Assembly (NCBI GenBank): GCA_964605205.1
Contig: CAZSBL010000004.1
Location: 1-55,500, forward strand
DNA from: an uncultured Gemmatimonadaceae bacterium
Lineage (GTDB): Bacteria > Gemmatimonadota > Gemmatimonadetes > Longimicrobiales > RSA9
Length of the DNA: 55,500 bases
Direction: 5' to 3'
Below are positions 10,931-48,223 of the stretch, piece by piece. Position numbers and translations under genes: made by a program. The first letter of the stretch is position 1. Each line of letters starts with the position of its first letter. The notes beneath the pieces are model-generated. The model was not told the DNA's origin, ran no database searches, and worked only from the letters and a program-made list of their open reading frames with translations.

Positions 10931-10942
10931 GGCGGTAGCGGA

Positions 10943-13129: not shown

Positions 13130-13146
13130 GAAAGGGGAGGGTCGCA

Positions 13147-14085: not shown

Positions 14086-14093
14086 CCGGACGC

Positions 14094-16061: not shown

Positions 16062-16140
16062 ACTGGCGGGGCCGCGTTCGCGTGGGGCGGCCCGGATCCC
16101 TCGGGGATCCCCGATGAGGAGATCGCGGGCTGACCGCCGG

Positions 16141-16545: not shown

Positions 16546-16584
16546 GCGCCTACCCCACCGCGCCAGCATCCAGCCAGGCGGCTG

Positions 16585-16977
16585 TTACTCCGGGTGCCGG
16601 GACCGGACGAGCCATGCTGTCGCCAGGAACAGGCCCAACCACACCGCGGTCCGAAAGGTCATCGCCCAAAGACTGTCTACGGCGACGCCCCCGCCACTCC
16701 GGTAGACGGCGAGGGTGGCTACGAGTACGAGGAGGTTGAGCAGGAAGACGGCTGTTGCCGCGTACCGGCCCGCATGGACGCTGTGCCAGACCGTGACGCC
16801 CGCCGCAACATACGCCCCGCCCATGACGGTGTTGTAGATCAGGAGAGGTCGAAACACCGGGTACCCCGGGTCGGCACCCATGAACACGCGGCTACCGGCG
16901 AAAAGCGTGGCGATACCGAACAGAACCGCAACGGCGGCCGCGAGCACCTGAACGTTCCGGACCGAACGGGCCGCCAT
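16585..16977 (-). CDS. Hypothetical integral membrane protein
   Basis: About four hydrophobic segments; TGATG overlap with the upstream gene. Confidence 0.75.
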   Translation of the reverse strand: MAARSVRNVQVLAAAVAVLFGIATLFAGSRVFMGADPGYPVFRPLLIYNTVMGGAYVAAGVTVWHSVHAGRYAATAVFLLNLLVLVATLAVYRSGGGVAVDSLWAMTFRTAVWLGLFLATAWLVRSRHPE

Positions 16978-17510
16978 CAGGCCCGTACCTTCCGCCATAG
17001 CGAGGCGAGGGCGGGTCGGACCGCAAAATGGGCGGCAGCGGATAGGGCGGCGGCGACGGACGCGGCGATCGACGGCAGCACCGAGCCGAAGACGAATGTC
17101 ATGCCCAGTACGAACCCGAAAACGTACTCCGCCCGGTAGACCGGAAGAACGACGCCGGAGGCCAGTGCCCCGAAGAAGATACCCGAGGAGACCGACTCGT
17201 ACCCCGCTGCGAATGACGCGGAGAGCGCGATTCCGACCAGCACCGCACCTGCAAACCCCGCCATGGCCCTGGCTGCAGCGCCTTCGTTGGCTCGGGCACG
17301 CCTGGCGACCACGCGGGACGCCAGCCAGCCCAGCGCGGGAAGGATCAGCAGACCCCACCAGTTGGAAATCGCCGGCAGGTCATCACGTGCAAGCAGGTGG
17401 TGGCTCCCGACGCCCCCGTGCGCGATTTCCCACCCGAGATGGAGTGCGGCTGCCAGGAAGGCGAGGCCCAGCCCATAGGGCAGAAGGCCGTGGGTCTTTC
17501 GGTTTGCCAT
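16977..17510 (-). CDS. Hypothetical integral membrane protein
   Basis: AGGAG RBS; multiple TM segments; HHLLARDDLPAISNWWG and LPVYRAEY motifs. Confidence 0.8.
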   Translation of the reverse strand: MANRKTHGLLPYGLGLAFLAAALHLGWEIAHGGVGSHHLLARDDLPAISNWWGLLILPALGWLASRVVARRARANEGAAARAMAGFAGAVLVGIALSASFAAGYESVSSGIFFGALASGVVLPVYRAEYVFGFVLGMTFVFGSVLPSIAASVAAALSAAAHFAVRPALASLWRKVRA

Positions 17511-17719
17511 GATCACTCCTCGGACCGGAGCGAGAGGTCGCCCCTTGCGCTCGACCTTCGCTGGTGACGATACGCCCCCCGGGCTGATCAGCCAAGCGGT
17601 TCAACCCCCTGGCGCTGCCATTTGCGCGGCGCTGTGGCGGGGCGTTAGCGTGGGCTCGTACTCCCGATGGGACCCCACTCCAGCCGCCGGCCGGATCGAG
17701 GCCGAGGGAGGAAGCCGTC

Positions 17720-18949
17720 ATGAGTCGAGACCGTTGCGTTGGACCCGGCCGCCTGCACGCCGTCTTTCTCCTTACCGTCCTGGGGCTGGCCGCGTGCGGT
17801 GGGGATGCCGCCGACATGGCGCCCCGGGTCCTGGACGCGGCCGACGTCCGGGTGCTTGGCGGCTCGGACTCGGTGGCGGTGGTCCGTGACCTGGCGGTGC
17901 TGCCCGACGGCCGGGTGTGGGTCCAGAACTCCGTGGAGCCCCTCTTCGTCGGGTTCGACGCCGCGGGGCGGGTGACGGCGACGCGGGGGCGCCGGGGAGG
18001 CGGCCCGGAGGAGTTTCGGCTGCCGTCGGGGTTCGTGGTGGGCGGCGAGACGGCGTGGACATTCGACTCTCCGCGGCACGCGCTGATCCGGGTCGACGCC
18101 GACAGCCTGGTGGTGGTGCCGCTCCCCCGCGATGCGATCCCCCGGGGCAGCGTCACGCCCGGCGACGTCCTGTCGTTCGGGGCGCTGCGGACGGCGTGGC
18201 TTGGCGACGAGGTGGTCCTGCCCCGTCGTCGCACCCGGGACGATCTCCCGGCCACGCGCTACTGGACCACGATCTGGGACGCGGAGCTGGTGGCGCTGGA
18301 TCCGGCCACGGCGGCGGTCCGGACGCTCGTCTCACTGCCCGACGCCCTGGGCGACCTCGACGCCCACTTCGACGCGCTGAGCCCCGGTTTCCCGCCGTTC
18401 CCCCTCTGGGTCCGGCTCTGGACCGTATGCGGCGACGAGGTCCGGCTCCACGACTTCCGGCGGAACCGGGTGCGCGTCTTCTCCGCCGACGGCACGGAGC
18501 GCGACCCGATCCCCCTCCCGCCGCCGCCTCTCGGCGAGGTGACGCCTCGCCAGTTCGTGCGGGTGGCGTTCGACCTCATCGCCGCCGAGCAGGCCGGCGC
18601 GGTGCGGGAAGGGATGGGTGCCATGTCACCGGCGGACAGCGCCCGGCTCATCGAGGCCGCCGCGTCGCGGATCGACGCCGGCCCCGACCGCCTCGGCGGG
18701 GTCCTGCCCGGCTACGTGGACCTCCGCTGCGACGACGCCGGGGCCGTCTGGCTCCGGCCCCTGGACGTGGAGCGGGGTGGGCTCCACGGCGGCCCCATGT
18801 GGATCCGCGTGACCGCCGACGGTCGGGCCCGCACCGTCCGGTTCCCGGACCGCTTCGACCCCTACCGATTCACCGGCGACCGCGCCTGGGGCGTCCTGCG
18901 GAACGAGCTCGACGTGGCCGCCATCGCCTGGATCTCCCTGGACGGGTAG
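17720..18949 (+). CDS. Lipoprotein, probable beta-propeller (NHL/6-bladed-like)
   Basis: GGGAGG RBS; lipobox LAAC-GG; GRRGGGPEEF motif and C-terminal WGVLRNELDV typical of such propellers. Confidence 0.75.
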   Translation: MSRDRCVGPGRLHAVFLLTVLGLAACGGDAADMAPRVLDAADVRVLGGSDSVAVVRDLAVLPDGRVWVQNSVEPLFVGFDAAGRVTATRGRRGGGPEEFRLPSGFVVGGETAWTFDSPRHALIRVDADSLVVVPLPRDAIPRGSVTPGDVLSFGALRTAWLGDEVVLPRRRTRDDLPATRYWTTIWDAELVALDPATAAVRTLVSLPDALGDLDAHFDALSPGFPPFPLWVRLWTVCGDEVRLHDFRRNRVRVFSADGTERDPIPLPPPPLGEVTPRQFVRVAFDLIAAEQAGAVREGMGAMSPADSARLIEAAASRIDAGPDRLGGVLPGYVDLRCDDAGAVWLRPLDVERGGLHGGPMWIRVTADGRARTVRFPDRFDPYRFTGDRAWGVLRNELDVAAIAWISLDG

Positions 18950-19148
18950 CCCCCGGACCCCGAACTCGCCAGAAAAGGAAGGGGCCAGGCACCGGCAAGC
19001 CCGCCCCGCCGCAACCACCCCTCATCCCCTCATCGGGGTGCGAAGCGAAGGGGGCCACCCGCCGGCGAGTCTGCCCCGCCCGGATCGCCCCCCATCGCCG
19101 TCCACCGGCGACTCCGCCGGCTCTGCCGGCTGGCCCCTCTGCCGCCGA

Positions 19149-20906
19149 CTACCGGTCCGTATCAGCCCCCGCGCCCGCCACGGCCAGGGGGATATCCCCG
19201 AGCCCGGAGAACTGCGGGTTCTGGCGCCCGTCGGTGGCATCGCGGACGCCGCCCTTCACGTAGGTGGCGACCTCGACGAAGGTGACGATCCCGTTGCCGT
19301 CGGCGTCGGCGTCGCCGTTGAGTCCCTGGAGGATGTGGTGGGTGAAGACGCCGTGGCCGCCGGCCCAGCGAGCGTCCTCGAAGCTGAGCTCGTTGACGTC
19401 TGCGGCGGTGAGGGTGAGCCGGCGGGACGGGGTGAACAGGTCATTGAAGGAGCCACCGATGGGGTTGCCATCGATGGGGATGTCGGACTCGCCGGTGCCG
19501 GCGGAGTGGCAGGCGTCGGCGATGACCACCACGCGCTCGGCGGAGATCTGCCGCCGGAGCGCGGTCTTCACGTCCCACATGGGGAACCCGGTGGCCGCCA
19601 GCGCGTCGACGTCGGTGTCCACGGGGAAGAGGTAGAGGTTGTCGGGGCGGTCCGGGTCGGGGGCGCCGTGGCCGGCGAAGTATATGACCACGAGATCGTC
19701 CCAGTCGGCCTGCTGGAGGAAGACGAACATGGCCTCGCGCATGGCGGCGCCGGTGGCCTGCTCGTCGGTGAGCAGGAGGATGTGGTCCTCCTCGAACGGG
19801 CCGGCGGCGTCGGAGCGGAGGAAGTCGTGGATGGCGCGGGCGTCGTCATCGGCGTACTCGAGGTCGGGGATGAGCCCGTCGTCGTACTCGCCGATCCCGA
19901 TGACCACGGCCCAGCGCTCGTCGATCCGGGGCGACGCGAATGCGGTGCGGGTGTTCCCCTGGCCGTCGCGGGCGACGATCCGGACGGAGTCACGGTCCAG
20001 CGCCAGCGGCGTCCGGGCGACGAACCGCGAGGCCGGGCCCCGGGTGATCCCCAGCCGCTGGGCGTCGGCGGCGCTCAGCCGCTCGAGGGAGACGGGCTCG
20101 CCCTCCACCTCCACGGCCACATCGCTGCCGATGACCACGCCCTCGATCTCCACCAGGTTCGTGGCGTTCTGCCGGGCCTCGTGCTCGGTGCGGGAGATGA
20201 CGCCGATCCCCCGGGTGGCCATCTCGCTGTCTTCCATCGGCTCGACCCGGGTGCCGAGGATGGCGAGCCCGGGACCGCCGGTGCCGGCCTGGCCCACGGA
20301 CTCCTCCACGGAGCCGGGGTCGGGCTCGAAGTAGCCGCGGCCGGTCCAGCCGTTGGCCTCCCAGTCATTGACGATGCCGCCGAGGAAGCCGGTCTCGTTG
20401 ATGACCTCCTCGGTGGCGGCCCGGAGCGCGCCGTTCCGGGCGGCCTGGTCCGTGGCCTCGAGCTCGCGGCCGGCGCCGGTCGCGGTGGCCACCACGTTGC
20501 CCTGGTCGAGCCGGAGCGCCCGGAGCCGGACCTCGCCGGTGCCGGTCACCAGCGTACCCGAGATGGGGTCGGGGCTCGTGCCCCAGTCGGCCTGGCCCAG
20601 GATCAGGACCTGGGCGCCGAAATCGCGCCCGAGGCGGACGGCCGCGCCCTCGTCGCCGGCGAGCGCCGCCTGGACCAGCTCCCGCTGCGCGGCCGTGTGG
20701 GCCAGCGCCGGGTCCACCAGCGGGAACCCGGCCTCTACCAGGAAGGAGGTGAGCTCGCCCACGGTCACGCCCGCGCTCCCGTCCTCGGGCACGAACACCA
20801 GCGTGCGAGGCAGCTCGCTCTCGAATCGGATCTCCTGGGCGGCCACCGGCGTCGCGATGGTGCAGACGACGGCGATCAGCAGCCCCAGCGTTGCCATGCG
20901 GTTCAT
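19149..20906 (-). CDS. Exported protein, FlgT/CsgG-like N-terminus plus C-terminal peptidase C14 (metacaspase-like)
   Basis: Signal peptide; AVRLGRDFGAQVLILG; RWAVVIGIGEY, FAGHG, ADACHSAG, GHGVFT, DADGNGIVT. Confidence 0.88.
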   Translation of the reverse strand: MNRMATLGLLIAVVCTIATPVAAQEIRFESELPRTLVFVPEDGSAGVTVGELTSFLVEAGFPLVDPALAHTAAQRELVQAALAGDEGAAVRLGRDFGAQVLILGQADWGTSPDPISGTLVTGTGEVRLRALRLDQGNVVATATGAGRELEATDQAARNGALRAATEEVINETGFLGGIVNDWEANGWTGRGYFEPDPGSVEESVGQAGTGGPGLAILGTRVEPMEDSEMATRGIGVISRTEHEARQNATNLVEIEGVVIGSDVAVEVEGEPVSLERLSAADAQRLGITRGPASRFVARTPLALDRDSVRIVARDGQGNTRTAFASPRIDERWAVVIGIGEYDDGLIPDLEYADDDARAIHDFLRSDAAGPFEEDHILLLTDEQATGAAMREAMFVFLQQADWDDLVVIYFAGHGAPDPDRPDNLYLFPVDTDVDALAATGFPMWDVKTALRRQISAERVVVIADACHSAGTGESDIPIDGNPIGGSFNDLFTPSRRLTLTAADVNELSFEDARWAGGHGVFTHHILQGLNGDADADGNGIVTFVEVATYVKGGVRDATDGRQNPQFSGLGDIPLAVAGAGADTDR

Positions 20907-21574
20907 CGGCTTCCTCCTTCCACTCGCTCGAGAGCCGCGGCCGCGGCCTCGTGCCGTGGGAACAGCTCCAGTGCTCTGCGATACATCTCCGCGGCCCGGC
21001 CCTCGAGCCCCTGCTCCTCGTAGGCCAGACCCCGGGAATAGGCCAGGATCGCCTCGACGGGCGGCTCCGCGACGTGGCCGGCCACCCGGGCGGGCAGCTC
21101 GATCCCGTCGAGGAAGTCGTCGGTCAGCGCGGTGACCAGGTCGAGCATGGCGTCGCGCCGGCCCTGCTGCCGGCTCGCCTTCTCCACCGTGCCGCTGGCG
21201 GCGTCGAGCAGGCGCAGGTCGATCCGGACCCGCTCCGGCTCCAGCGCCACCGTCCCGATCACCAGGTAATCCGCGCCCAGCACCCGGGCCAGCTCCACCG
21301 CCCGGCTCTCGTCCATCCGGCCCGAGAGCGCCAGCTGCCGCGTCTGGATCAGCTGCTCGATCTGCTGCCGGTCCACCACCTTCACCACCGGCCGATCCGC
21401 CAGCTCTGTGGTGATCATCGACGCCAGACCACGCCCCACCGCGTCCGCGTCCTCACCCGTCAGACTGAAAACGTTGAAGTCGAACACGGCGATAGTCGGC
21501 ACCCGGGCGTCCTGCGCCGCCGCCGCCACTGGCAGCAGCGCCATGACCAGAGCCAGCACAAAACGTCGAACCAC
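20903..21574 (-). CDS. Exported CsgG/FlgO-like domain plus TPR protein
   Basis: GGAGG then GTG; signal peptide ending AAAQ; IAVFDF, VVDRQQI, ARVLGADYLVIG, C-terminal YRRALELFP TPR; ATGA overlap with the caspase gene. Confidence 0.8.
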   Translation of the reverse strand: MVRRFVLALVMALLPVAAAAQDARVPTIAVFDFNVFSLTGEDADAVGRGLASMITTELADRPVVKVVDRQQIEQLIQTRQLALSGRMDESRAVELARVLGADYLVIGTVALEPERVRIDLRLLDAASGTVEKASRQQGRRDAMLDLVTALTDDFLDGIELPARVAGHVAEPPVEAILAYSRGLAYEEQGLEGRAAEMYRRALELFPRHEAAAAALERVEGGSR

Positions 21575-21714
21575 GGGAACCTCCGCGCGAATCGCGTACC
21601 AGGGAGAGGGGAAAGCGCCCAAACAGGCAGAGCCTAAGTTAAGGTGCCGACGCGGATGGGAAAAGAAGATCGGCTCTTCGACACCTCGAGTGGGTCGTGG
21701 GCTCCGGAGGCACC

Positions 21715-23502: not shown

Positions 23503-23847
23503 CTAGTTGAGTCGGACCTCCACGCTCGAGCCCTGCTCCAGCACCACGGTCCGGCGGACCGTGCGGGTGTCCTCTTCGTCGGTGGCGACGATGGTGACGG
23601 TGGTGCCCATGCCACCGTCGAAGACGAAGCGTGACTCGGACTCGGCGGCCACGGTGCCCAGGAGGCGGGTGGCGGCGCCATCATCGTAGGAGACGATCAT
23701 GGGGTGCGGCATCTCGTTGATCACGGTCACGGCGTAGCGGGCGCCGAGGTCGCTGTCCATGGACATGCCGGCGCAGGCGGCGGTGAGGGTGAGGATCGCC
23801 GCGAGGGCCGGGAGTCGGAGTCGTCGCATAAGGGCCTGCTCGATCAT
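23503..23847 (-). CDS. Hypothetical lipoprotein
   Basis: Lipobox TAAC-AG after a hydrophobic stretch; ATGA overlap with the SDR stop. Confidence 0.75.
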   Translation of the reverse strand: MIEQALMRRLRLPALAAILTLTAACAGMSMDSDLGARYAVTVINEMPHPMIVSYDDGAATRLLGTVAAESESRFVFDGGMGTTVTIVATDEEDTRTVRRTVVLEQGSSVEVRLN

Positions 23848-24554
23848 GGGGTCCATTCCAGGGCGCGGAACCGCTCGCCGGTCACGCCGGATTCGTCGCT
23901 GGCCAGCCAGAGGAACACGCCGGTGGCGTCCTCGGGCGGCGCGGGCTTCATCGGGTCCTCGTCGGGGTACGCCTCGCGGCGCATCTCGGTCCGCAGCCGG
24001 CCCGGGTCCACGATATTGACGCGGATCCCGGCGTCTTCTTCTTCCAGCGCCAGGTTCTTCGACAGCGCCTCCACGCCCCACTTGCTGATGGCGTAGGCGC
24101 CCCAGCGGGCCCGGGCGATGTTCCCGACGCCGCTGGACACGTTGATAATGGAGCCCCGGCCGGCCTCGCGCATCCCCGGCAGCACGGCCAGCGTGGGGAT
24201 CAGAGTGCCGGTGAGGTTCACCTCGAGGACCTGGCGCCAGTCTTCGACGAGGTGCTCGCGGAGCGGGACCCGGGGGCCGAGGACCGATGCGTTGTTGATC
24301 AGCGTGCTCACCGGGCCGAACCGCTCGGCGGCCCGGGCCACCAGCGCCGCCACGTCACCCTCATGGGAGACGTCCACGGCGCCCCACTCGACCTCGGTGG
24401 TGTCCCGGAGCTTCCCGGCCACTTCGGCCATGGCCTCTTCGCCCCGGGCGCAGAGGACCAGGCGCGCGCCGGCGCCGGCGAACGCTTCGGCCAGCGCCCG
24501 GCCGAGCCCCCGGGACGCGCCGGTGATGAAGACCGTCTGGGCGGAGAGCATCAT
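23844..24554 (-). CDS. Short-chain dehydrogenase/reductase
   Basis: TGASRGLG, NNAS, NVSSG, YAISK, RVNIVDPG. Confidence 0.93.
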   Translation of the reverse strand: MMLSAQTVFITGASRGLGRALAEAFAGAGARLVLCARGEEAMAEVAGKLRDTTEVEWGAVDVSHEGDVAALVARAAERFGPVSTLINNASVLGPRVPLREHLVEDWRQVLEVNLTGTLIPTLAVLPGMREAGRGSIINVSSGVGNIARARWGAYAISKWGVEALSKNLALEEEDAGIRVNIVDPGRLRTEMRREAYPDEDPMKPAPPEDATGVFLWLASDESGVTGERFRALEWTP

Positions 24555-24925
24555 TCCGAGCCGTCCTCGATGACCCGGTCGACGGCCCGCATCCGGACGC
24601 CGATCTGGTGGAGCCGGTGGCGGGTGGTGAGGACGTTGGCGTAGTCGAAGTAGGCGTTGACGGGGTCATCGGCGCCCACGTACTGCTCGAGGATCAGCGC
24701 GTCCATCCGCTCCTTGAGGTGGCCGAGGACGGCGTCGAGGGCGGCCAGGAGCCGGGCCTGCTCCGCCGGTCCATCCACGGAGATATCGCCCCGGAGCGGC
24801 AGCCGCTCGTCGAGGGCGGCCATGGCCTCCGGGGGCGCGGCCACGCCGCCGCCGACCTCGCCGCGGATCCGTTCGGCGGCGGAGTTCAGCGCGGTGACCT
24901 CTTCGTATGAGAGCTCCAGGATCAT
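24551..24925 (-). CDS. Hypothetical protein
   Basis: Normal codon usage; ATGA overlap with the SDR gene. Confidence 0.75.
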   Translation of the reverse strand: MILELSYEEVTALNSAAERIRGEVGGGVAAPPEAMAALDERLPLRGDISVDGPAEQARLLAALDAVLGHLKERMDALILEQYVGADDPVNAYFDYANVLTTRHRLHQIGVRMRAVDRVIEDGSE

Positions 24926-25003
24926 CCTTCTCGCGCGTCTCGGGTTCGGGTCCCTGCGCCCATTCCTGCGTTCACGATACGTGCCAGCCGCGCGGGGGTT
25001 CCG

Positions 25004-25762
25004 TCAATCACCGTCGCCGCCACCGGGGCCGGCGCCGAGCCAGTCCGCCAGCACCAGCCCGGCCAGGAGGTCGAGGATGGTGTGGGCGATCATGGACGGG
25101 TACACGCTGCCGGTGAGCAGGAACGGCGCGGTGAGGAGGAGCCCGAGGAGCACCACCCGGACCACCCCGACCATGCCCTGGTAGGCGTGGGTCACCGCGA
25201 ACGCGGCCACGCTGACCGTCACGGCTACCGCCATGCTGCCGGAGGCCTGGTGGAGCACGCCGATCAGGAAGCTGCGGAAGATCAGCTCCTCGGCGATCCC
25301 GGCGGAGACGGAGAGCCCGGCGAAGGCGATCTTCTCCGACGTGCTCCGGGGGATCAGGTAGTCGACCAGCTCGCTCTCGGAGATCCGGAGCGCCCGGCCC
25401 AGCGCCATGATCCCGAGTCCGCCGAGCACGGTGAGGGCGGCGGCGCCCAGCAGCACGGCCGGAGACATCATCTCGATCCGGAGGTCGGCGCGGGTCAGGT
25501 CGCCGTGGCGGGCCGCCAGCATGGCCAGGGCGGCCAGGACCCAGACGGAGAGGGCGGAGGAGAAGTAGACGCTCTCGCGCTCCGCGTCGTCCGGGAGCCG
25601 GATCAGGAGCCGGGCCTGGAGGATCATGAGCGCGGGGAGCGGGCCCAGCAGGAATGTGGTCAGCGTACGGGCGGGCCAGGCGATCCCGGCCAGGCTCCAC
25701 CAGATGACGAGGGTGGCCAGGAGCGTCAGGAGCCCGAGGACGTGGCCCAGCCGCCGGTTCAC
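25004..25762 (-). CDS. CPBP family intramembrane metalloprotease (Abi/CAAX protease-like)
   Basis: AGIAEELIFRS, FAVTH, AHTILD; multiple TM helices. Confidence 0.9.
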   Translation of the reverse strand: MNRRLGHVLGLLTLLATLVIWWSLAGIAWPARTLTTFLLGPLPALMILQARLLIRLPDDAERESVYFSSALSVWVLAALAMLAARHGDLTRADLRIEMMSPAVLLGAAALTVLGGLGIMALGRALRISESELVDYLIPRSTSEKIAFAGLSVSAGIAEELIFRSFLIGVLHQASGSMAVAVTVSVAAFAVTHAYQGMVGVVRVVLLGLLLTAPFLLTGSVYPSMIAHTILDLLAGLVLADWLGAGPGGGDGD

Positions 25763-25769
25763 GCCGCGC

Positions 25770-26672
25770 TCACTTCAGCCACCGCCGCGCCACGGGGACC
25801 AGGAGCCCGATCAGGAGCCCGGTCCCGAGCCCGACCGTGGTGTCGATGGCGTAATGGATCCCGGAATAGACCGCGCCGAAGGCGATCCCCAGGGTGCCGA
25901 GGGCCAGGATCGGCGCGGCCGCCGGGAGGTGCCGGACCGCGTTCGTCACCTGGACCGCCGCCAGCGCCGTGTGCGACGACGGGAACGCGGTCCCCGAGCT
26001 GGCGCCGCTGCCGAGGATGAACTGCACCGTGCGGTACATCGGCCCCGCCGACTGGGGCTCGCCCGGTGGCGGGAAGAGGAAGTAGGGCCCCTTCACCGGG
26101 AAGGTGATGAAGACGGTGTAGTGGACGGCGAAGCCGAGCATCATCCCGAACAGCGTGTCCACGAGCGCGTCCCGGCCCCGGCGGGCGTAGACCACCACGG
26201 GATAGACGTACAGGATCAGATAGTACGAGAGGTACGCGAAGTGGAGCGGCTCGGAGAGGAGCAGGGAGGTGAAGCGCCGGGGGAAGGTGACCGCCACCTG
26301 CGTCCCGAAGACCGCCGCCTCCCACTGCTGCACCAGCGCGTCGAAGTAATGGCCGCCCCAGATGGACTGGTTCAGCAGCGGCAGCTCCCAGTACAGGAAG
26401 GGCAGCAGGAGCAGCGGGTACCCGTCGGCGACGATGGCCGCCGTCCGGCGGAGCGGGTCCGGCCACCGCCGGTCTGGCTCGCCACGGGCCCACCGCCGGA
26501 GCCGCTCCCACCCTCCCGTGAGGAGCGCGCCGCCGAGGGCCAGGTGCGCGGCCACCAGGAGCGGCCAGAGCGCCGGCCGGTGGGGGAACGCGTAGGCCAG
26601 GGCGGCCAGGACGAGGTACCCGCCGACCACGCGGTCGAGGGGCCGGGCGGGTCTAGGCGAGCTCCCGTCCAT
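25770..26672 (-). CDS. PAP2/AUR1-like membrane phosphoesterase or phosphotransferase
   Basis: FPVKGP, AFPSSH, GIHYAID and FAYLSYY, an AUR1/PAP2_3-type layout. Confidence 0.85.
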   Translation of the reverse strand: MDGSSPRPARPLDRVVGGYLVLAALAYAFPHRPALWPLLVAAHLALGGALLTGGWERLRRWARGEPDRRWPDPLRRTAAIVADGYPLLLLPFLYWELPLLNQSIWGGHYFDALVQQWEAAVFGTQVAVTFPRRFTSLLLSEPLHFAYLSYYLILYVYPVVVYARRGRDALVDTLFGMMLGFAVHYTVFITFPVKGPYFLFPPPGEPQSAGPMYRTVQFILGSGASSGTAFPSSHTALAAVQVTNAVRHLPAAAPILALGTLGIAFGAVYSGIHYAIDTTVGLGTGLLIGLLVPVARRWLK

Positions 26673-27777
26673 ACACGCGATACGTCTTGAACACGTATGC
26701 CCCCATCCGCTCCATCCCCCGGCGCATCCCCCAGTTGTCCTCGAGGATCCAGCCGGCCTCGGCCCGGTGGATCCCGGCGCCGGTGCCCTGCTCGAACATG
26801 TGCAGGTAGAAGAGGGCGTCGATCCCCTTGCGGCGGTACGCCGGCTTGAGCCCCAGCGTGAAGACGCGGAGCTGGTCGATCTTCCGCCGGTGCCAGAGCA
26901 GCTTGAGCCAGCCGAAGGGGAAGAGCCGGCCGTTCAGGTGCTTCAGCACCCGGTTGTAGTCCGGGAGCGCCAGCGCGAAGCCCACGGGCTCGCTGCCGAC
27001 CTCCGCGATGACGGCGTACCGCTCGTCGATGATCGGCTTCAGCTCCTGGCCCAGGTGCTCGATCTCCGCGTCGGTCAGCGGCGCGAAGCCCCAGTTCTTC
27101 TCCCACGCGGCGTTGTAGATCTCCTTCACCAGCCGGATCTCCCGGTCGAGACGCTTCAGCTCGATCTGACGGAGCCGCAGCCCGTCGATCTTGCTGGTCA
27201 TCCGCTTCACCCCCCGCACCAGCCGCTCCGGCGGCGCATCGGCCTCGAGGCGGTACGAGAGGAGGTCCTTCGCCTTGTCCCACCCCGCCGCCTCGAAGAG
27301 CGTCGGGTAGTACGGCGGGTTGTGCCCCATGAGCAGGACGGGCGGCGTGCCGTAGTTGTCGAGGAGGACGCCGGGGCCGTACAGCTCGTCGTTGGTGGAG
27401 AGGTTAAACGGGCCGATGGCCTCGGCCTGCCCGCGCTCCCGCAGCCAGTCGGCGGCGGTCTCGAGCAGGAGCCCGGCCACCGCCGGGTCATCGACGCACT
27501 CGAACAGCCCGATGAAGCCGGTGCGGGTGTCGTGGAACGCGTTGTAGCGGTGGTTCACGGCCGCGGCGATCCGGCCGACCACCTCGTCATGGCGGAGGGC
27601 CAGGAAGAACTCGGTGTCGGCGTGCTCGTGGAACGGGTGCTCGCGGCGCACGAGGGTCCGGACATCGGCTTTCAGCGGCGGGACCCACGCGGGGTCGTCG
27701 GCGTAGATCCGCCAGGGCAGCTCGATGAACCGCTTCTCGCTCGCCGGGTCCCGGACCGGCACCACCAGGGTGCCCAT
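26653..27777 (-). CDS. GNAT-like N-acyltransferase, bacterial ceramide synthase (bCerS)-like
   Basis: FIELPWRIY.DDPAWVPPL, VVGRIAA, GFIGLFE, HNPPYY, AWEKNWGF, WILEDN; adjacent to spt. Confidence 0.75.
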   Translation of the reverse strand: MGTLVVPVRDPASEKRFIELPWRIYADDPAWVPPLKADVRTLVRREHPFHEHADTEFFLALRHDEVVGRIAAAVNHRYNAFHDTRTGFIGLFECVDDPAVAGLLLETAADWLRERGQAEAIGPFNLSTNDELYGPGVLLDNYGTPPVLLMGHNPPYYPTLFEAAGWDKAKDLLSYRLEADAPPERLVRGVKRMTSKIDGLRLRQIELKRLDREIRLVKEIYNAAWEKNWGFAPLTDAEIEHLGQELKPIIDERYAVIAEVGSEPVGFALALPDYNRVLKHLNGRLFPFGWLKLLWHRRKIDQLRVFTLGLKPAYRRKGIDALFYLHMFEQGTGAGIHRAEAGWILEDNWGMRRGMERMGAYVFKTYRVYGRELA

Positions 27778-27796
27778 GCCTACAGGGTGCCCATGC

Positions 27797-28981
27797 CTAC
27801 AGGACGGCCATGGCCTTCCCGACCTTCGCGAAGGCGTCCAGCACCTGGTCGATGTGCTCGTCCTCGTGGGTGGCCATGAGGGAGATCCGGAGCCGGCACG
27901 AGTCCTCCGGCACCGCCGGCGGCGTCACCGGGTTCGTGAATACGCCGGCGTCGAACAACTCCTTCCAGAAGACCAGCATCCGGTCCAGCTCACCGATCAC
28001 CACCGGCACCACCGGCGTCTCGCTTTCGCCGATGTCGTAGCCGAGGCCCTTGAGCCCTTCCTGCATCCGGCGGGTGTTCCGCCAGAGCCGCTGGATCCGC
28101 TCCGGCTCTTCCTTCAGTACGTCCAGGGCGGCCTGCACCGTGGCCACCGCGGACGGCGGCATGCTGGCACTGAAGATCAGCGGCCGGGCGTGGTGCTTCA
28201 GGTAGTGGATCACCACTTCCGGGCCCGCCACCACGCCGCCGATGGAGGCCAGCGACTTCGAGAAGGTGGTGATGATCAGCCCCACCTCGTCGGTCAACCC
28301 GAAGTGTTCTGCGGTCCCGGCGCCCGTCTCGCCCAGCACGCCGAAGGCGTGGGCGTCGTCCACCACCACCCTGGCGTGGTACCGCTGGCCGAGCTCCACC
28401 AGCCCCGGCAGGTCCACGATGTCGCCCTCCATGGAGAAGATACCGTCGGCGATGATCATCTTTCCCGCCTCCGCCGGCACCTTCCGGAGCCGTCGCTCCA
28501 GGTCCTCCATGTCATTGTGGTTGTACTTGTGGGTCTCCCCGTGAGAGAGACGGCAGCCGTCCACGATGCTCGCGTGGTTGAGGCGGTCGCTGAAGATGTG
28601 CTCGTTGCGCCCCACCAGGCCGGCGATGACGCCCAGATTGGTCTGGAACCCGGTGCTGAAGATCAGCGCCTCTTCCTTGCCCAGGAACTCGGCCAGATCG
28701 CGCTCCAGCTTCTGGTGCAGGTCCAGGGTGCCGTTCAGGAAGCGGCTGCCCGTGCACCCGCTGCCATACCGACGCAGCGCCTCGTCGGCCGCCGCCAGCA
28801 CCTTCGGATGATGTGTGAGGCCCAGGTAGTTGTTGGACCCCACCATGATCTTCCGGCGTCCCTCGACCACCACCACGGTATCGTGGGAGTCCTCGATGGC
28901 GCGGAAGTACGGGTAGAACCCTGCGGCCTGGACCTCCCGCGCCTGCGTGTAGTTACGGCATTTGTCGAACAGACTCATCAA
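27797..28981 (-). CDS. spt: Serine palmitoyltransferase (alpha-oxoamine synthase family)
   Basis: FYPYF, GSNNYLGL, SRFLNGT, NHASIVDG, DDAHAFG, TFSKS (PLP Lys) and IFSASMPP favour SPT over BioF/Kbl. Confidence 0.85.
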   Translation of the reverse strand: MMSLFDKCRNYTQAREVQAAGFYPYFRAIEDSHDTVVVVEGRRKIMVGSNNYLGLTHHPKVLAAADEALRRYGSGCTGSRFLNGTLDLHQKLERDLAEFLGKEEALIFSTGFQTNLGVIAGLVGRNEHIFSDRLNHASIVDGCRLSHGETHKYNHNDMEDLERRLRKVPAEAGKMIIADGIFSMEGDIVDLPGLVELGQRYHARVVVDDAHAFGVLGETGAGTAEHFGLTDEVGLIITTFSKSLASIGGVVAGPEVVIHYLKHHARPLIFSASMPPSAVATVQAALDVLKEEPERIQRLWRNTRRMQEGLKGLGYDIGESETPVVPVVIGELDRMLVFWKELFDAGVFTNPVTPPAVPEDSCRLRISLMATHEDEHIDQVLDAFAKVGKAMAVL

Positions 28982-29008
28982 ACCCCCGATCTCATATGCT
29001 TCAGCGAC

Positions 29009-29971
29009 TCACAGCCAGCCGTACGCCCGGTACCACGCGGCGGTTTCCCGGAGGCCGTCCGCCAGCGGGATCCGGGCCTCGAAGCCCAGCTCCCGACGGG
29101 CCGTCGCCGTCTCGCACAGCCACTCCGCCAACAGCTCCTTCGCTTTGTCCCGGTCGAAGATGACCGGGCGGCGCGTCCGGCGGGCGATGGCTTCCGACAC
29201 CGCCGCCGCCCCCTTCACCGCCGCCGCGGGCACCCGGATCCGGACCCCTGTCCGGTCCATCACCCGCGCCATCATGTCCAACAGCTCGCTCCAGCGGTAG
29301 GCCCGGGGCTCGGCCACGTGGTAGACGCCCGTGGCGTCCGCCGCCGCCGCCGCCATCATCGCCTCCGCCAGGTCCCGGGCGTGCACCAGCTGCAGCCGCC
29401 GGTCCGGCGGCCCCACCACCGGCAGCACCCCGAACCGCGCCAGCCGGAAGAACGTCAGCAGGTCCCGGTCCCCGGGGCCGTACACCGCCGGAGCCCGGAT
29501 CACCGCCGCGTCTGGCCACCCCTCCACCACGGCCTCGCCGGCCAGCTTGCTCCGGCCGTAGGCCGTGAGCGGCCGCGGCTCGTCGCCGGGTTCCACCGGC
29601 GTCCCATCCCGCGACGGCCCTACGGCCGCCATCGAGCTCAGGTACACGAGTCGGGCACCGCTGGTCTCCGCCTCCATGGCGGTGACCAGCCGCTCCGTGC
29701 CCTCCGCGTTGATCCTGTGAAACGTCTCGGCGTCCAGGGCGCGCGTCGCGGCGGCCATGTGGACCACCACGTCGGCGCCCGCCACCGCCCGACGCAGCGA
29801 GGCCCCGTCGCTCAGGCTCCCGACCACCGTCTCGAAGCCGTACCGTTCGAGGAGGGAGGTGTCGCTCGACTCCCGTACGAGAGCCCGCGCTCGGCCGACC
29901 CGCCGCGCCAGCACGTCCACGAGGTGCGACCCGACGAAGCCGGTCGCGCCGGTAATCAGGATATCCGTCAC
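29009..29971 (-). CDS. NAD-dependent epimerase/dehydratase (extended SDR), putative ceramide reductase CerR-like
   Basis: TGATGFVG, YGRSK, IRAPAVYGPGD; directly upstream of spt. Confidence 0.8.
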   Translation of the reverse strand: MTDILITGATGFVGSHLVDVLARRVGRARALVRESSDTSLLERYGFETVVGSLSDGASLRRAVAGADVVVHMAAATRALDAETFHRINAEGTERLVTAMEAETSGARLVYLSSMAAVGPSRDGTPVEPGDEPRPLTAYGRSKLAGEAVVEGWPDAAVIRAPAVYGPGDRDLLTFFRLARFGVLPVVGPPDRRLQLVHARDLAEAMMAAAAADATGVYHVAEPRAYRWSELLDMMARVMDRTGVRIRVPAAAVKGAAAVSEAIARRTRRPVIFDRDKAKELLAEWLCETATARRELGFEARIPLADGLRETAAWYRAYGWL

Positions 29972-30102: not shown

Positions 30103-30381
30103 GTGGCGCTTCTCGACGAGCAGGAGATCCGCAGCCATCTCGACCGGCTGCACGGCTGGACCCGTGATGGAGACATGATCCGGAAGACGTTCACCCTGGA
30201 CTCGTTCCAGGAAGCCATCGACTTCGTGAACCGGATCGCCGAGCGGGCGGAGGCGGCCGGCCATCACCCGGACATCGACATCCGGTACGACCGCGTGGCG
30301 TGCGCCCTCTCGACGCACAGCGAGGGCGGCCTCACGAACAAGGACTTCGACATGGCCGCCCGGATCGAAGAGGTCCGTTAG
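30103..30381 (+). CDS. phhB: Pterin-4-alpha-carbinolamine dehydratase
   Basis: AGHHPDI, LSTHSEGGLT.KDFDMA. Confidence 0.95.
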   Translation: MALLDEQEIRSHLDRLHGWTRDGDMIRKTFTLDSFQEAIDFVNRIAERAEAAGHHPDIDIRYDRVACALSTHSEGGLTNKDFDMAARIEEVR

Positions 30382-30429: not shown

Positions 30430-31749
30430 TCACCGCCCGTTCCCGGCCACGAGGGCGCCGACCACGTCCACGGCGTGATCCAGCTGCGCTTCCGTGATGG
30501 TCAGCGGGGGTGTAAACGCCAGCGCGGCCCCCTCCGGGAGGAGGATCACGCCCTCCCGCAGCGCGGCGGCCGCCAGCGCGGCGGCCGTCTTCTCGTCCGC
30601 GACCTCCAGCGCCCGCATGAGCCCCAGCCCCCGGGTGGACCGTGCGCCGGCGTGGGTCTGGACCAGCGCCCGGAGTCGCTCGTCGAGCCGGTCTCCGAGC
30701 TTGGCGGCCCGGGCCACCAGCCCCCGGCCCTCGATCTCGTCGAGCTGCGCCAGCGCGGCGGCGCACGTCACCGGGTTGCCCAGGAAGGTGCTGGTGTGGA
30801 TCGCCTCCCCGTCGGACGGCGGCCACGCCTCCATGACGGCGGGGTTGCCGATCACCGCGCTCAGCGGGAGCCCGCCGGCCAGCGACTTGCCCACCGTCAC
30901 GAGGTCCGGCACCACGCCCGTGTGCTGGCACGCGAACCACCGGCCGGTGCGGCCCAGCCCGGTGTAGATCTCGTCGGCGATGAGGAGCACGCCCTCCTCG
31001 TCGCAGAGCGTCCGCAGCCGGGTCAGGAAGTCCGGCGGTGGGACCACGATCCCGCCCCGCCCCTGCACCGGCTCGACGATCACCGCGCCCACCGGCGGGT
31101 CGCCCCGGATCGCGGTCCGCACCGCCTCCAGCGCCGCGTCGGTGGTCACGTCGCGCCGGCCGACCGGTGCCGCGCCATCGGCCGGGTAGGGGGCGAAGCG
31201 GACGCCGTCGAAGAGCTGGGCCTGGAACGGCGCCCGGAACCGGTGCCCGGCGGTGACGGCGAGGGCGCCGTACCCGAGGCCGTGGTAGCCGCCCTCGAAC
31301 GCCACGATCCCGGGCCGACCGGTGGCCAGTACGGCGGTCTTGAGCGCCGACTCCACCGCGTCGCTCCCGTTGGCCGAGAGGATGGAGACCGAGAGGTCGC
31401 CGGGGGCCAGCGCGGCCAGCCGCTCCAGCAGCTCGACCTTGATCTCCGCGGGGTGGACATCACCCATGGCGTGAGCCAGGCGCCGGAGCTGGGCCCCGGC
31501 GGCATCGGCCACCGCCGGGTTCCCGTGGCCCGCGGCACTCACGCCGAAGCCGGCGGTCAGGTCGATGTAGACATTGCCGTCGGCGTCCCGGACGTTGGCG
31601 CCGGCGGCCTCCGTCCAGAAGATCGGGCCCAGCTCGCCCACCGCGGTGATGTTGCGGGACTCGACGGCCGCCAGCCGCTCGGCCAGCGCCCGGGACTTCG
31701 GGCCGGGCACCGGTGTACGGAGGTCGGGGAGCGCTCCGCCCGGCGGCAT
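30430..31749 (-). CDS. Class III PLP aminotransferase (4-aminobutyrate aminotransferase-like)
   Basis: DADGNVYIDL, GSDAVESALK, YHG, EPVQGRGG, ADEIYTGLGRTG, GKSLAGG, HTSTFLGNP. Confidence 0.92.
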   Translation of the reverse strand: MPPGGALPDLRTPVPGPKSRALAERLAAVESRNITAVGELGPIFWTEAAGANVRDADGNVYIDLTAGFGVSAAGHGNPAVADAAGAQLRRLAHAMGDVHPAEIKVELLERLAALAPGDLSVSILSANGSDAVESALKTAVLATGRPGIVAFEGGYHGLGYGALAVTAGHRFRAPFQAQLFDGVRFAPYPADGAAPVGRRDVTTDAALEAVRTAIRGDPPVGAVIVEPVQGRGGIVVPPPDFLTRLRTLCDEEGVLLIADEIYTGLGRTGRWFACQHTGVVPDLVTVGKSLAGGLPLSAVIGNPAVMEAWPPSDGEAIHTSTFLGNPVTCAAALAQLDEIEGRGLVARAAKLGDRLDERLRALVQTHAGARSTRGLGLMRALEVADEKTAAALAAAALREGVILLPEGAALAFTPPLTITEAQLDHAVDVVGALVAGNGR

Positions 31750-31753
31750 CCGG

Positions 31754-32167
31754 TCAGTGCCGCTCGATGAGCCAGGTGACCAGGGCGCCGGCCAGGAGCC
31801 CGGCCACGAACGCCGTCCCCAGCGCCGGCCCGCTCCCGGCGGGCGGCAGTGCCCGGGGCCGGGTCTTCGGCTGCGTCGGGCCCCCGGCGGTGGTCTGCCC
31901 CTGGGCGGCGGCCTCAGTGGCCGCGGCGTCGAGCTCGGTCTCGTAGTCGCACGCGGGGCACTCCGCCTCCCCGTTCTCCAGCGCCGTCCTGTTGCGGTAC
32001 CCCAGCGGAGCCCCACATTCCGGGCAGTGGCGGCCCGCGGGGCGGGGGTCGATCCCCTCGTAGAGCGTGCGGCGCGAGAGGTCGAACTGGTCGGCGATCT
32101 CGGAGACCGATGCGTCGGTCTCCCAGTACAGCCGGTTCAGCTCCGTCTCGGTGCTTGGGTCCACCAT
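31754..32167 (-). CDS. Hypothetical protein: HTH-like N-terminus, CxxC-CxxC zinc ribbon, C-terminal TM anchor
   Basis: SVSEIADQFDLSRRTLY; CPECG..CPACD; C-terminal FVAGLLAGALVTWLI. Confidence 0.8.
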   Translation of the reverse strand: MVDPSTETELNRLYWETDASVSEIADQFDLSRRTLYEGIDPRPAGRHCPECGAPLGYRNRTALENGEAECPACDYETELDAAATEAAAQGQTTAGGPTQPKTRPRALPPAGSGPALGTAFVAGLLAGALVTWLIERH

Positions 32168-32381
32168 GGCGGCTCCCGTGGTTGGAGGCAGCGCTCAAGA
32201 TAGAAACGGTGCAAGCCGTGGACCAGACCGGGGCTCACCCGGCGGGCCGGTGGGCCGGCGGCCGGCGCCGGCCCGACTTCACGGAAACTCCGGTACGTAC
32301 ACGCGCGTACGGCCCCACACGGCCACACGGAATCACGGACACACGGAACGGAACTCCCGACGGAGCCAGACGAGGTCCAGC

Positions 32382-34565
32382 GTGATCGCTCTACTCCTCA
32401 TCGCCGCGCTACAGGGCGTGCAGGTCGACGTCGGCGTCGACCGCGAGCCCCGGACCGGGACCGGGGCCCCGCAGGACACCCTCCGGCCCGTGCCCACCCC
32501 GGAGGACTACGCCACCGCGTACGCCAACGAGGAGACCCGCACGCTGGTGGAGCGGGCCCGGGGCCACCGTGACGTCATCGACGCGTCGGTCTTCCACTAC
32601 ACCGCCACGTCGCACCAGCGGATCTCCGTTGGGATCCGGGCGCTGCGCCGGGAGCGGCTCCTCTTCCGGCGGGAGACGGCGGCCCGGATCGAGTGGCACC
32701 GCGACCGGCCGAGCCGGGTGAAGGTCGAGGGCGCCCGGCAGGCGGTGCCGGTGGCCATGCCCGGTATCCATATCCCCGAAGACCTGGAGGATTGGGCCCG
32801 GGAGTTCATGCCGGAGCCCGGCGATGACCGGCTCTTCGCGGCCGAGAGCAACGGCCCGTTCGCGTGGCACCCGCTCATGGACGGCGGCGAGGCGCTCTAC
32901 CGGTACGAGATCGGAGACAGCACCGTGATCCGGCTCCCGGACGGCGACCCGATCCGGCTGGTGGAGCTGCGGGCGATCCCCCGGGAGCGGGATATCCGCG
33001 TGGTCACGGGCTCGTTCTGGATCGAGCTCGACGACTACGCCATCGTCCAGGCCCTCTTCCGGCCCGCCGACTCCTTCGACCTCGAGCGAGATCTGGCGCG
33101 CCTCGACCCGGAGGAGGCGGCCGAAGAGGCCGATGACATGGACGAGATCCCGGCGATGCTCAAGCCCATCGTCTTCGAGATCGACTACGTGACCGTGGAC
33201 TACGGGCTCTGGGAAATGCGCTGGTGGATGCCCCGTCACATGGGGTTCCACGGGTCGCTCAGCATGGGCGCCATCACGGTCCCCGTCTCCCTTGAGATCC
33301 GCTACTCCGACTACACCGTGCGGGCCGATCCGTGGGGGTGGGACGAGTTGCCGCCGGCGATCCGCGACCTGGCCGGCGACACCACCGACACGCCCCGCCC
33401 GTTTGCGTTCCGCACCATCGTGGAGGTGGCCGACTCGGCCGCGCTGCTGAGCAGCCCGCTCCTGGTGGAATCGTTCTACGCCCATGGAGAGGGGCTGATC
33501 AGCGAGGCCGAGCTCCGGGACCTGACCGACCGGCTCGGGGCGCTCCCGCCGTCGCCGTGGGTGGCGAGACGGCCCCGGATCACGCCGCCCTGGGTGCCCG
33601 GGAAGGGGCTCCTCCGCTACAACCGGGTCGAGGCGCTCTCCGCCGGGGTGCGGGCCGACCTCGACCTGGGCCGTCTCCGCCTCGATGCCACCGCACGCCT
33701 CGGCGTGGCCGACCTCGCGCCCAACGCCGAGCTCGGCGTCACCATCCCGTCGCTCCGGCGCGACTGGCGGGTGGCGGCGTACCGGCGGCTGGCCGTGGCC
33801 GACCCGTCGCTCCGACCGCTGGGGCTCGGCAACTCCATCAGCGCGCTCCTCCTGGGGCGCGATAATGGGACCTACTTCCGGGCGCTGGGCGCCGAGGTGC
33901 GGGTGGCGCCGAAGGGCGAGTCGTGGTACCGGGCGCGGCTCTACGTCGAGCACCAGTCGGCGGCCGCCACGAACACCGATTTCAGCATCCCGCACCTCAT
34001 CGACCCGGCCCGCGGCTTCCGACCGACCATCGACGCGGCCACCGCCCACCAGGTGGGGCTGGCCATCACGCTGGGCGGCGAGCGCGGGCTGAACCCCACC
34101 GGCTTCCGCTGGGGCGGCTGGCTCGACCTGACCGCCCAGGCCGGGCGCTACACCTTCCTCCGGCCCGGGCTCACGCTCCGGGGCTCGGGCCCCGTGCTCG
34201 GGCTCCTGTTCGGCCTCGAGGTAGCTGGCGGGACCACCTTCGCCGACGGCGCGGCGCCGATCCAGGGCGCGTGGTTCCTGGGCGGGCCGGCCACCCTCCG
34301 GGGCTTCCGCGGCGGTGCCCTGACCGGCCCCGACTACGGCCGCGCACGGGCCGAGCTGGCCAACGCCTTCCCCGCCGCCCGGCTGTCCATCTTCGCCGAC
34401 GCCGGCTGGGCCGGGACCTTCGACGCGTTCGCCGAGGATGACGTGGCCCTCTCCGCCGGGATCGGTGCCAGCCTCTTCGACGGTCTCCTCCGCATTGACC
34501 TGGCCCGGCGGATCGAGCCGGAGCCCGGCACCCACCTCGAGCTCTATTTCGACGCGCTCTTCTGA
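32382..34565 (+). CDS. Outer membrane beta-barrel protein, Omp85/DUF5686-like
   Basis: Hydrophobic leader; RYNRVEAL; FLGGPATLRGF (Omp85 loop-6-like); terminal Phe. Confidence 0.7.
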   Translation: MIALLLIAALQGVQVDVGVDREPRTGTGAPQDTLRPVPTPEDYATAYANEETRTLVERARGHRDVIDASVFHYTATSHQRISVGIRALRRERLLFRRETAARIEWHRDRPSRVKVEGARQAVPVAMPGIHIPEDLEDWAREFMPEPGDDRLFAAESNGPFAWHPLMDGGEALYRYEIGDSTVIRLPDGDPIRLVELRAIPRERDIRVVTGSFWIELDDYAIVQALFRPADSFDLERDLARLDPEEAAEEADDMDEIPAMLKPIVFEIDYVTVDYGLWEMRWWMPRHMGFHGSLSMGAITVPVSLEIRYSDYTVRADPWGWDELPPAIRDLAGDTTDTPRPFAFRTIVEVADSAALLSSPLLVESFYAHGEGLISEAELRDLTDRLGALPPSPWVARRPRITPPWVPGKGLLRYNRVEALSAGVRADLDLGRLRLDATARLGVADLAPNAELGVTIPSLRRDWRVAAYRRLAVADPSLRPLGLGNSISALLLGRDNGTYFRALGAEVRVAPKGESWYRARLYVEHQSAAATNTDFSIPHLIDPARGFRPTIDAATAHQVGLAITLGGERGLNPTGFRWGGWLDLTAQAGRYTFLRPGLTLRGSGPVLGLLFGLEVAGGTTFADGAAPIQGAWFLGGPATLRGFRGGALTGPDYGRARAELANAFPAARLSIFADAGWAGTFDAFAEDDVALSAGIGASLFDGLLRIDLARRIEPEPGTHLELYFDALF

Positions 34566-46619: not shown

Positions 46620-46871
46620 CCGCTGCCTCCCGTTCTGCGCGCGTGTGCCCTCCACTCCTGGCAATCCCCACGCCAGGGCTGAAGCTGGGAGTGCCCCTCG
46701 CCGACGGCAAGGAAGACGGCAACAGCTCAACGCGGAAACGCGGCCTCGCCCCGCATCCGGCCATTCGCCGGGAACGTGGCCCCGCCCGTCGTCGCCGTTG
46801 ACCCCCATCCCGCGGATGCGTAACGTGCCGGTCACGAGCCCACGGCACCCCAGCCCTGTCGAGGATACCCC

Positions 46872-48185: not shown

Positions 48186-48186
48186 A

Positions 48187-48223
48187 ACGCGGAGGCGCGG
48201 AGGGCGCGAAGGGCGCGAAGGGC
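48187..48223 (+). repeat. Short tandem GCGCG(G/A)AG repeats
   Basis: ACGCGGAG GCGCGGAG G GCGCGAAG G GCGCGAAG; same core as the 21715 element. Confidence 0.7.

Follow-up and report, generated by a model that had tools for sequence, protein, structure and literature searches.

The 55,500-nt stretch of Gemmatimonadota DNA considered here (the window, G+C content 70%) carries on its minus strand a chain of eight genes whose first four members, judging by the proteins they encode, probably make up a Spt-bCerS-CerR-type operon for bacterial sphingolipid synthesis. These proteins are an extended (epimerase-type) SDR, a serine palmitoyltransferase (SPT)-like alpha-oxoamine synthase (AOS), a tandem-GNAT N-acyltransferase and an Aur1-like integral membrane protein of the PAP2_3 family. 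A first-pass annotation of this DNA had proposed that the chain encodes all three core steps of ceramide synthesis, which Caulobacter carries out with Spt, a GNAT-like bCerS and an SDR-type CerR. Evidence from protein families, homology and synteny agrees that the three genes are present and clustered.

Organization and genomic context of the cluster

Raw lists of open reading frames (ORFs) were noisy for this window and third-position GC content was used to pick genes. The chain of eight minus-strand genes is unbroken from 23503 to 29971 (third-position GC 0.91-0.97), and this measure confirmed the coordinates of the eight co-directional, closely spaced or overlapping genes that had been described initially. 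Followed from the end of the extended SDR gene to the last gene, the successive junctions are +30, +19, -20, +7, +78, -4 and -4 nt. Pfam and NCBIfam likewise confirmed the gene families named in the first-pass annotation, except for a lipoprotein call on the last gene that has a separate basis and is discussed below. No terminator-like site was found on the minus strand within the eight-gene chain; a sigma-70 promoter scan, which is uninformative for Gemmatimonadota, returned no site in the region. We infer that the first four genes are co-transcribed.

The cluster sits in a Gemmatimonadota (Longimicrobiales-like) chromosome. The nearest homologues of the GNAT protein (80-82% identity) and of the SPT-like protein (87-89% identity) come from Longimicrobiales/Gemmatimonadota metagenome-assembled genomes (MAGs), and a Gemmatimonadota contig of 1.36 Mb (locus L001) shows synteny with the window in the genes flanking the cluster. 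The remaining window is ordinary chromosome, with the end of gyrA, ferritin, FeoB, a SUF system, MscL, a thiolase, an LD-carboxypeptidase and a phosphofructokinase.

The serine palmitoyltransferase-like enzyme

The second gene of the chain (27797-28978, minus strand) encodes the AOS, a pyridoxal phosphate (PLP)-dependent enzyme. Its best NCBIfam model is NF047600 (SPT, CFB type) with 553 bits, ahead of the BioF/Kbl family model (429 bits), bioF (418 bits) and KBL (401 bits). Among PDB chains, the SPT of Sphingobacterium multivorum is the top match over the full length of the protein (436 bits, E = 1e-129), followed by the Sphingomonas SPTs (about 300-320 bits), KBL (274 bits), cysteate-C-fatty acyltransferase (247 bits) and BioF (at most 241 bits). 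Chains that are not SPTs score at most 300 bits, against 436 for SPT. The catalytic residues H159, D231, H234, the PLP lysine K265 and R390 are kept (S. paucimobilis numbering). The protein shares 38%, 41% and 48% identity with the enzymes of the Sphingomonas, Escherichia coli and Streptomyces reference clusters described in the next section.

A neighbour-joining tree covered every GNAT-linked AOS gene; S. paucimobilis Spt and the E. coli enzymes Kbl and BioF were added, which makes for a small outgroup. The window AOS lies deep within the GNAT-linked clade, and in 97 of 100 bootstrap replicates Kbl and BioF fall outside the clade that joins it to S. paucimobilis Spt. Clustering with BioF or Kbl had been singled out in the first-pass annotation as the result that would speak against a sphingolipid operon; by model, structure and bootstrap value the enzyme is instead closest to characterised SPTs, ahead of BioF, Kbl, HemA, CqsA and cysteate acyltransferase. 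Its sequence identifies it as an SPT-like enzyme of a sister lineage that is not filed as an NF047600 equivalog.

The closest characterised SPT is the CFB-type enzyme of Bacteroidota (S. multivorum, PDB 3A2B and 8GUH), and both it and the window enzyme are without an acyl carrier protein (ACP) partner. Caulobacter and Sphingomonas, in contrast, have an SPT of the alphaproteobacterial type. The three genes were reported to be unclustered in sphingolipid-producing Bacteroidota (PMC11334938), whereas in the window they abut.

The candidate N-acyltransferase and reductase

The third gene (26653-27777, minus strand) encodes a 374-residue tandem-GNAT N-acyltransferase of the YghO/bCerS family, a ceramide synthase candidate by homology and predicted fold. 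Pfam gives a weak GNAT match in the C-terminal half, and NCBIfam provides no name. A sequence search of the PDB with this protein returned nothing useful, and the fold search alone was informative: the AlphaFold2 (AF2) model (pLDDT 88) adopts a tandem-GNAT fold resembling MshD and other amine N-acyltransferases.

Reference clusters were found by tblastn of the GNAT protein against annotated records. Over its full length, the protein shares 36% identity with its Sphingomonas homologue, 33% with E. coli YghO and 39% with the Streptomyces protein (E = 1e-71 to 1e-90). The Sphingomonas parapaucimobilis cluster is composed of an NAD(P)H-binding reductase, ACP and Spt, then lptF, lptG, a desaturase and an N-acetyltransferase. 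The latter lies beside lptF/lptG, in the position of cerS, and matches the window protein with E = 1e-75. In E. coli, yghO is found next to genes for a fatty acyl-AMP ligase (FAAL), an epimerase, an ACP, an AOS and lptF/lptG paralogues; the Streptomyces cluster has the arrangement AOS-GNAT-epimerase. The layouts in Sphingomonas and E. coli agree with the published Caulobacter map, in which CC_1165-1162 correspond to aasR, cerR, acpR and spt, CC_1156/1155 to LptF2/G2 and CC_1154 to cerS (PMC11324152). The yghO locus of E. coli PN43 (L005:3489-9086, NZ_MG591698.1) amounts to a full Caulobacter-like sphingolipid gene set.

The GNAT family is of considerable size, with 1554 clusters at 50% identity matching at E <= 1e-30. 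It includes a metagenomic protein of 780 residues, P0124, in which an AOS domain is naturally fused to a bCerS-like GNAT domain. Another metagenomic protein, P0121 (784 residues), carries two bCerS-like units in tandem. Both may be real fusions or gene-calling artefacts.

The first gene (29009-29971, minus strand), with a GTG start at 29971 and the N-terminus MTDILITGATGFVG, encodes the extended SDR, a candidate CerR-like ceramide/3-keto reductase. The protein matches Pfam Epimerase at 1e-31 and, in the PDB, NDUFA9, the 39-kDa subunit of complex I (E = 5e-14 to 1e-11); CerR was itself described as NDUFA9-like (PMC11087976). The motifs GxxGxxG and YxxxK are present as GATGFVG and YGRSK. Full-length identity to the Sphingomonas, E. 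coli and Streptomyces reductases amounts to 31%, 29% and 39%, respectively (E = 1e-30 to 1e-52). The SDR-type CerR expected from the first-pass annotation corresponds to the extended SDR at the head of the chain, and the classical SDR further downstream does not correspond to it.

Co-occurrence of the genes across phyla

Conservation of the cluster was assessed in a single scan of GTDB species genomes with an alignment of the GNAT family. It listed 80 loci with 40-61% identity, all of them from MAGs and selected by GNAT homology alone, and the counts given throughout refer to these listed loci. An SPT homologue lies within 7 kb of the GNAT gene in 60 of the 80 loci, mostly with an SPT-GNAT gap of less than 150 nt. 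A reductase is found near the GNAT gene in 54 loci, and both SPT and reductase are present in 51. The association of SPT and GNAT genes is far beyond chance. The listed loci include Gemmatimonadota (both orders), Binatia, Eisenbacteria, Zixibacteria, Ignavibacteria, Calditrichota, Balneolaceae and Cytophagia, and further Spirochaetes, Acidobacteriota, Anaerolineae, Planctomycetota, Nitrospirota, Thermoleophilia, Latescibacterota and others. Among these loci, the triad occurs in both orders of Gemmatimonadota, in two arrangements: reductase-SPT-GNAT in the Longimicrobiales type and SPT-GNAT-reductase in the Gemmatimonadales type. In public records, the proteins are annotated as generic aminotransferase, 8-amino-7-oxononanoate synthase, GNAT or PAP2 phosphatase.

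No gene for an ACP or for an acyl-AMP ligase was found beside the Gemmatimonadota clusters or in the window. The lack of a dedicated ACP or acyl-ACP synthetase in the window fits a CFB-type pathway using acyl-CoA.

In two Binatia MAGs (L017:3309-4118 and L023:3494-4261), homologues of the fatty acid desaturase of the Sphingomonas cluster (40-45% identity) adjoin the ceramide clusters, which suggests a recurrent linkage of desaturases to such clusters.

The Aur1-like membrane protein

The fourth gene (25770-26672, minus strand) encodes an integral membrane protein whose best Pfam model is PAP2_3 (PF14378) and which is probably a ceramide phospho-head-group transferase. None of the residues H234, H273 and D277 varies among 45 members of the family, and the consensus reads FPVAGP ... 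AFPSSH ... VYxQxHYxVD, without the phosphatase C1 motif KxxxxxxRP and without the C3 Arg. Searching the PDB by Foldseek with the AF2 model (pLDDT 94) returned the yeast Aur1 inositol phosphorylceramide (IPC) synthase as the top two matches, 9vj4_A (E = 3e-5, TM 0.57/0.61) and 9ivc_A. Phosphatase structures rank below Aur1 and align to the core of the protein only. The window protein resembles Aur1 and BT_1522 in fold (PAP2_3), in its catalytic His-His-Asp motif (AFPSxH ... HYxVD) and in the absence of the phosphatase-specific Lys/Arg; BT_1522 is the precedent for a bacterial Aur1-like phosphatidylinositol (PI)-dihydroceramide synthase (PMC9246714).

A search with the family hidden Markov model showed that a PAP2_3 gene immediately follows the ceramide genes in 26 of the 80 listed loci, distributed over at least five phyla and including, besides Gemmatimonadota, Eisenbacteria, Acidobacteriota, Latescibacterota and Desulfobacterota-type MAGs. 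A role of its product on the product of the pathway is argued mainly from this independent linkage in two gene orders. Aur1 acts downstream of ceramide, and the genomic link of the window gene to ceramide genes parallels this. The PAP2/AUR1-like assignment and the head-group role proposed in the first-pass annotation are thus upheld by the His-His-Asp triad, the best-matching fold and the recurrent linkage, the activity being a prediction. No inositol-phosphate or PI synthesis genes were found in the window, nor a Kei1-like partner, and the PAP2 protein had no match among plasmid records.

Proposed pathway and comparison with known systems

In the proposed pathway, the SPT would condense serine and a long-chain acyl-CoA to 3-ketosphinganine, which the tandem-GNAT enzyme would N-acylate with a second acyl chain. 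The NDUFA9-like extended SDR would then reduce the 3-keto group, yielding dihydroceramide. This order of condensation, N-acylation and reduction is taken from the Caulobacter model (PMC11087976). Finally, the Aur1-like PAP2_3 protein may move a phospho-head group from a glycerophospholipid to the C1 hydroxyl of ceramide, giving a phosphosphingolipid; diacylglycerol would in effect be exchanged for ceramide on the phospholipid head group. The direct evidence consists of the protein families, the conserved catalytic residues and the clustering across phyla, from which we infer the substrates, the order of the steps, the use of acyl-CoA and the transferase activity of the PAP2 protein.

The Caulobacter and Sphingomonas pathway relies on the same three families, i.e. 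an AOS-type SPT, a GNAT protein of about 380 residues and an NDUFA9-like SDR, whose genes are also clustered, and the window proteins are 31-38% identical to those of the Sphingomonas cluster over their full length. The window differs from these systems by the absence of a dedicated ACP, of an acyl-ACP synthetase and of LptF2/LptG2 paralogues. It differs from Caulobacter, moreover, in forming one tight operon with a PAP2_3 gene in place of the ceramide-phosphoglycerate genes. Homologues of all three proteins are encoded in the E. coli YghO cluster, which adds a proteobacterial ACP, FAAL and LptFG, and in the Streptomyces AOS-GNAT-epimerase cluster, which is equally compact and also without ACP, and adds a condensation-domain gene. 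Neither cluster has PAP2_3 or CPBP genes. On the plasmid of Streptomyces sp. NBC_01001 (L004:10048-11295), this overlapping condensation-domain gene, similar to the C domain of non-ribosomal peptide synthetases (NRPS), continues the cluster, a possible sign of an additional step of acylation or head-group addition.

Alternative interpretations

Several observations weigh against a sphingolipid operon. Neither SPT nor reductase accompanies the GNAT gene in 17 of the 80 listed loci, some of which are on short contigs, and in the very large GNAT family there are also members that have no SPT gene next to them. For bCerS and CerR, the assignments were made through positional orthologues in annotated records, which stand in for the Caulobacter crescentus proteins CCNA_01212 (CC_1154, bCerS) and CCNA_01222 (CC_1164, CerR). 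A literature search found no paper linking Gemmatimonadota to Spt or sphingolipid synthesis, and no lipid report for the phylum. The AOS scores below the curated equivalog cut-off of NF047600 (553 against 640 bits) and does not have Arg378 of the Sphingomonas enzyme, a residue also missing in the E. coli and Streptomyces cluster enzymes, so that its amino-acid specificity cannot be read from the sequence. The same two features leave room for an AOS that uses alanine, glycine or another amino acid, in which case the same set of enzymes would make 1-deoxy-ceramide-like lipids or other N-acyl amino-ketone/alcohol lipids. Abundant 1-deoxysphingolipids were associated with environmental bacteria that carry Spt-like genes (PMC11334938). 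The nearest characterised relatives of the AOS are nevertheless all serine palmitoyltransferases, and an Aur1-like transferase, as predicted from the gene linked in 26 listed loci, would require a C1 hydroxyl that is provided by serine only, which makes the use of another amino acid improbable. Sulfonolipids of the capnine type, made from cysteate, are a far less probable product: the cysteate-C-fatty acyltransferases of FCB-group bacteria are AOS enzymes with detectable similarity to the window protein (247 bits), but the similarity to SPT is much stronger (436 bits), no cysteate synthase gene was found in the window and characterised sphingolipid producers have the same three-gene set. Least credible of all is an ordinary BioF/Kbl enzyme of biotin or threonine metabolism, lying beside an unrelated GNAT and SDR and outside any lipid pathway, as the label 8-amino-7-oxononanoate synthase given to homologues by JGI pipelines might imply. 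This interpretation is effectively refuted by the 125-200 bits that separate the SPT models and structures from those of BioF/Kbl, by the exclusion of Kbl and BioF in 97 of 100 replicates, by the clustering of the triad in 51 of 80 listed loci and by the absence of bio or tdh genes nearby.

The fourth gene calls for a separate assessment. The PAP2 protein could be a lipid phosphate phosphatase acting on ceramide-1-phosphate, a long-chain-base phosphate, undecaprenyl-PP or lipid A, and the cluster would then end at ceramide or at a lipid completed by enzymes encoded elsewhere. The Pfam PAP2 domain is also matched, databases call the protein a phosphatase, and the family profile matches LpxE (E = 2.7e-4) about as well as AUR1, which it finds through the same motifs (E = 7.4e-4). 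The resemblance to Aur1 is modest (TM 0.57, about 14-15% identity), and L001 carries the triad without the PAP2 gene. Against NF052609, the model of the Bacteroides PI-dihydroceramide synthase, the protein reaches 24 bits in the C2-C3 region only, for a cut-off of 480; this places it in the same superfamily but in another family, and the head group is consequently not inferable. A phosphatase is nonetheless unlikely, as the C1 motif and the C3 Arg are missing family-wide while His-His-Asp is invariant, PAP2_3 is the best Pfam model, and the fold matches the two Aur1 structures over the full length but phosphatases in the core only. A head-group transferase acting on ceramide is the preferred assignment.

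Possible accessory and neighbouring genes

The fifth gene (25004-25762, minus strand) encodes a co-located CPBP/Rce1-like intramembrane protease (Pfam PF02517, 1e-16, 61.5 bits against a gathering cut-off of 22.4). Among the listed loci, only the five closest, all of the Longimicrobiales type (L001, L002, L003, L008 and L010), have it downstream of the cluster, and it may be an accessory specific to this lineage. Just upstream of the cluster, a class-III aminotransferase gene (30430-31752, minus strand) is kept in L001, L002, L008 and L010; a pterin-4a-carbinolamine dehydratase gene (30103-30381, plus strand) is located between it and the cluster. The class-III aminotransferase and the CPBP protease were both considered as members of the pathway and set aside: they are confined to the same four to five Longimicrobiales-type listed loci, and their conservation may be lineage synteny. 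A class-III aminotransferase gene also occurs near the Sphingomonas cluster (L006).

The three genes at the end of the chain are probably neighbours only. The sixth (24551-24925, minus strand) encodes a hypothetical protein of 124 residues without Pfam or NCBIfam match, a homologue of which is found near the cluster in L001 only. The seventh (23844-24554, minus strand) encodes a classical, YciK-like SDR (adh_short, 9e-53) that scores 188 bits with the YciK family model, below its cut-off of 269, and is syntenic in L001 only. Bacteroides KDSR BT_0972 is a classical SDR (PMC9278070), and by analogy the window protein was considered as the pathway reductase, a role that its restriction to L001 leaves unsupported. 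The eighth gene (23503-23847, minus strand) encodes a small exported protein of 114 residues without family match, with homologues near the cluster in L001, L002, L003 and L008 only. It had been called a lipoprotein. The hydrophobic N-terminus agrees with this call, but it ends with LTLTAAC, a non-canonical lipobox, and the N-terminal sequence is the sole basis for a putative lipoprotein.

The first-pass annotation had taken all eight genes for a probable pathway operon, with extra genes for head-group addition and possibly trafficking. Comparative support extends to the first four genes, and to five with the CPBP protease within Longimicrobiales, but not to the last three. The trafficking role found no support, and LptF2/G2, which are known to serve sphingolipid transport in Proteobacteria, have no counterpart here.

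Other features of the window

Elsewhere in the window, a signalling-type neighbourhood was observed at 8693-21622 and 43739-45112. It is composed of caspase-like Peptidase_C14 proteins (8693-10930, plus strand, and 19149-20906, minus strand), a CHASE2 adenylate cyclase (10943-13129, plus strand), a GAF-HD protein (14094-16061, plus strand) and CsgG-like lipoproteins (20903-21622 and 43739-45112, both on the minus strand). An ORF of 832 residues at 32067-34565 (plus strand) matches no family. A protein of 805 residues with RCC1 repeats and a Big_2 domain is encoded at 40168-42585 (minus strand), adjoined by an ORF without annotation (42573-43742, minus strand). The ORF of 1019 residues at 45252-48311 (minus strand) is over-long, as only its C-terminal part (45252-46550) corresponds to a thiolase; opposite to it, an Eis-like GNAT protein with an SCP2 domain is encoded at 46872-48185 (plus strand).

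Significance for Gemmatimonadota

Soils and drylands harbour Gemmatimonadota in abundance, yet the phylum is hardly represented in culture and little is known of its membrane lipids. The three-enzyme pathway and its broad phylogenetic spread are already known, and the locus adds a member rather than a new kind of system. On the basis of Spt-like genes, the predicted distribution of the pathway widened from 9 to about 40 phyla, and bCerS and CerR are frequently encoded close by (PMC11334938). The first-pass annotation had considered the lineage as not known to produce sphingolipids; this stands in so far as no paper making the link was found, although with some 40 phyla already predicted (PMC11334938) the surprise is smaller. 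The text and text supplements of the Black Sea survey do not mention Gemmatimonadota.

The most original element of the locus is the recurrent Aur1-like PAP2_3 gene. To our knowledge, few bacterial head-group transferases have been described, and the linked gene is a compact candidate for one. Tentatively, and with somewhat more doubt than confidence, the PAP2_3 family may be proposed as a new class of bacterial ceramide phosphotransferase, distinct from BT_1522 and from the Caulobacter Cpg enzymes; the membranes of Gemmatimonadota would then hold an undescribed phosphosphingolipid, with the Longimicrobiales-specific CPBP protease as a possible accessory. From the conserved ceramide operon, Gemmatimonadota are predicted to make sphingolipids. 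If true, a pathway whose spread is inferred mostly from genes would gain a phylum of relevance at the lipid level, and the interpretation of environmental sphingolipid and 1-deoxysphingolipid signals would be affected.

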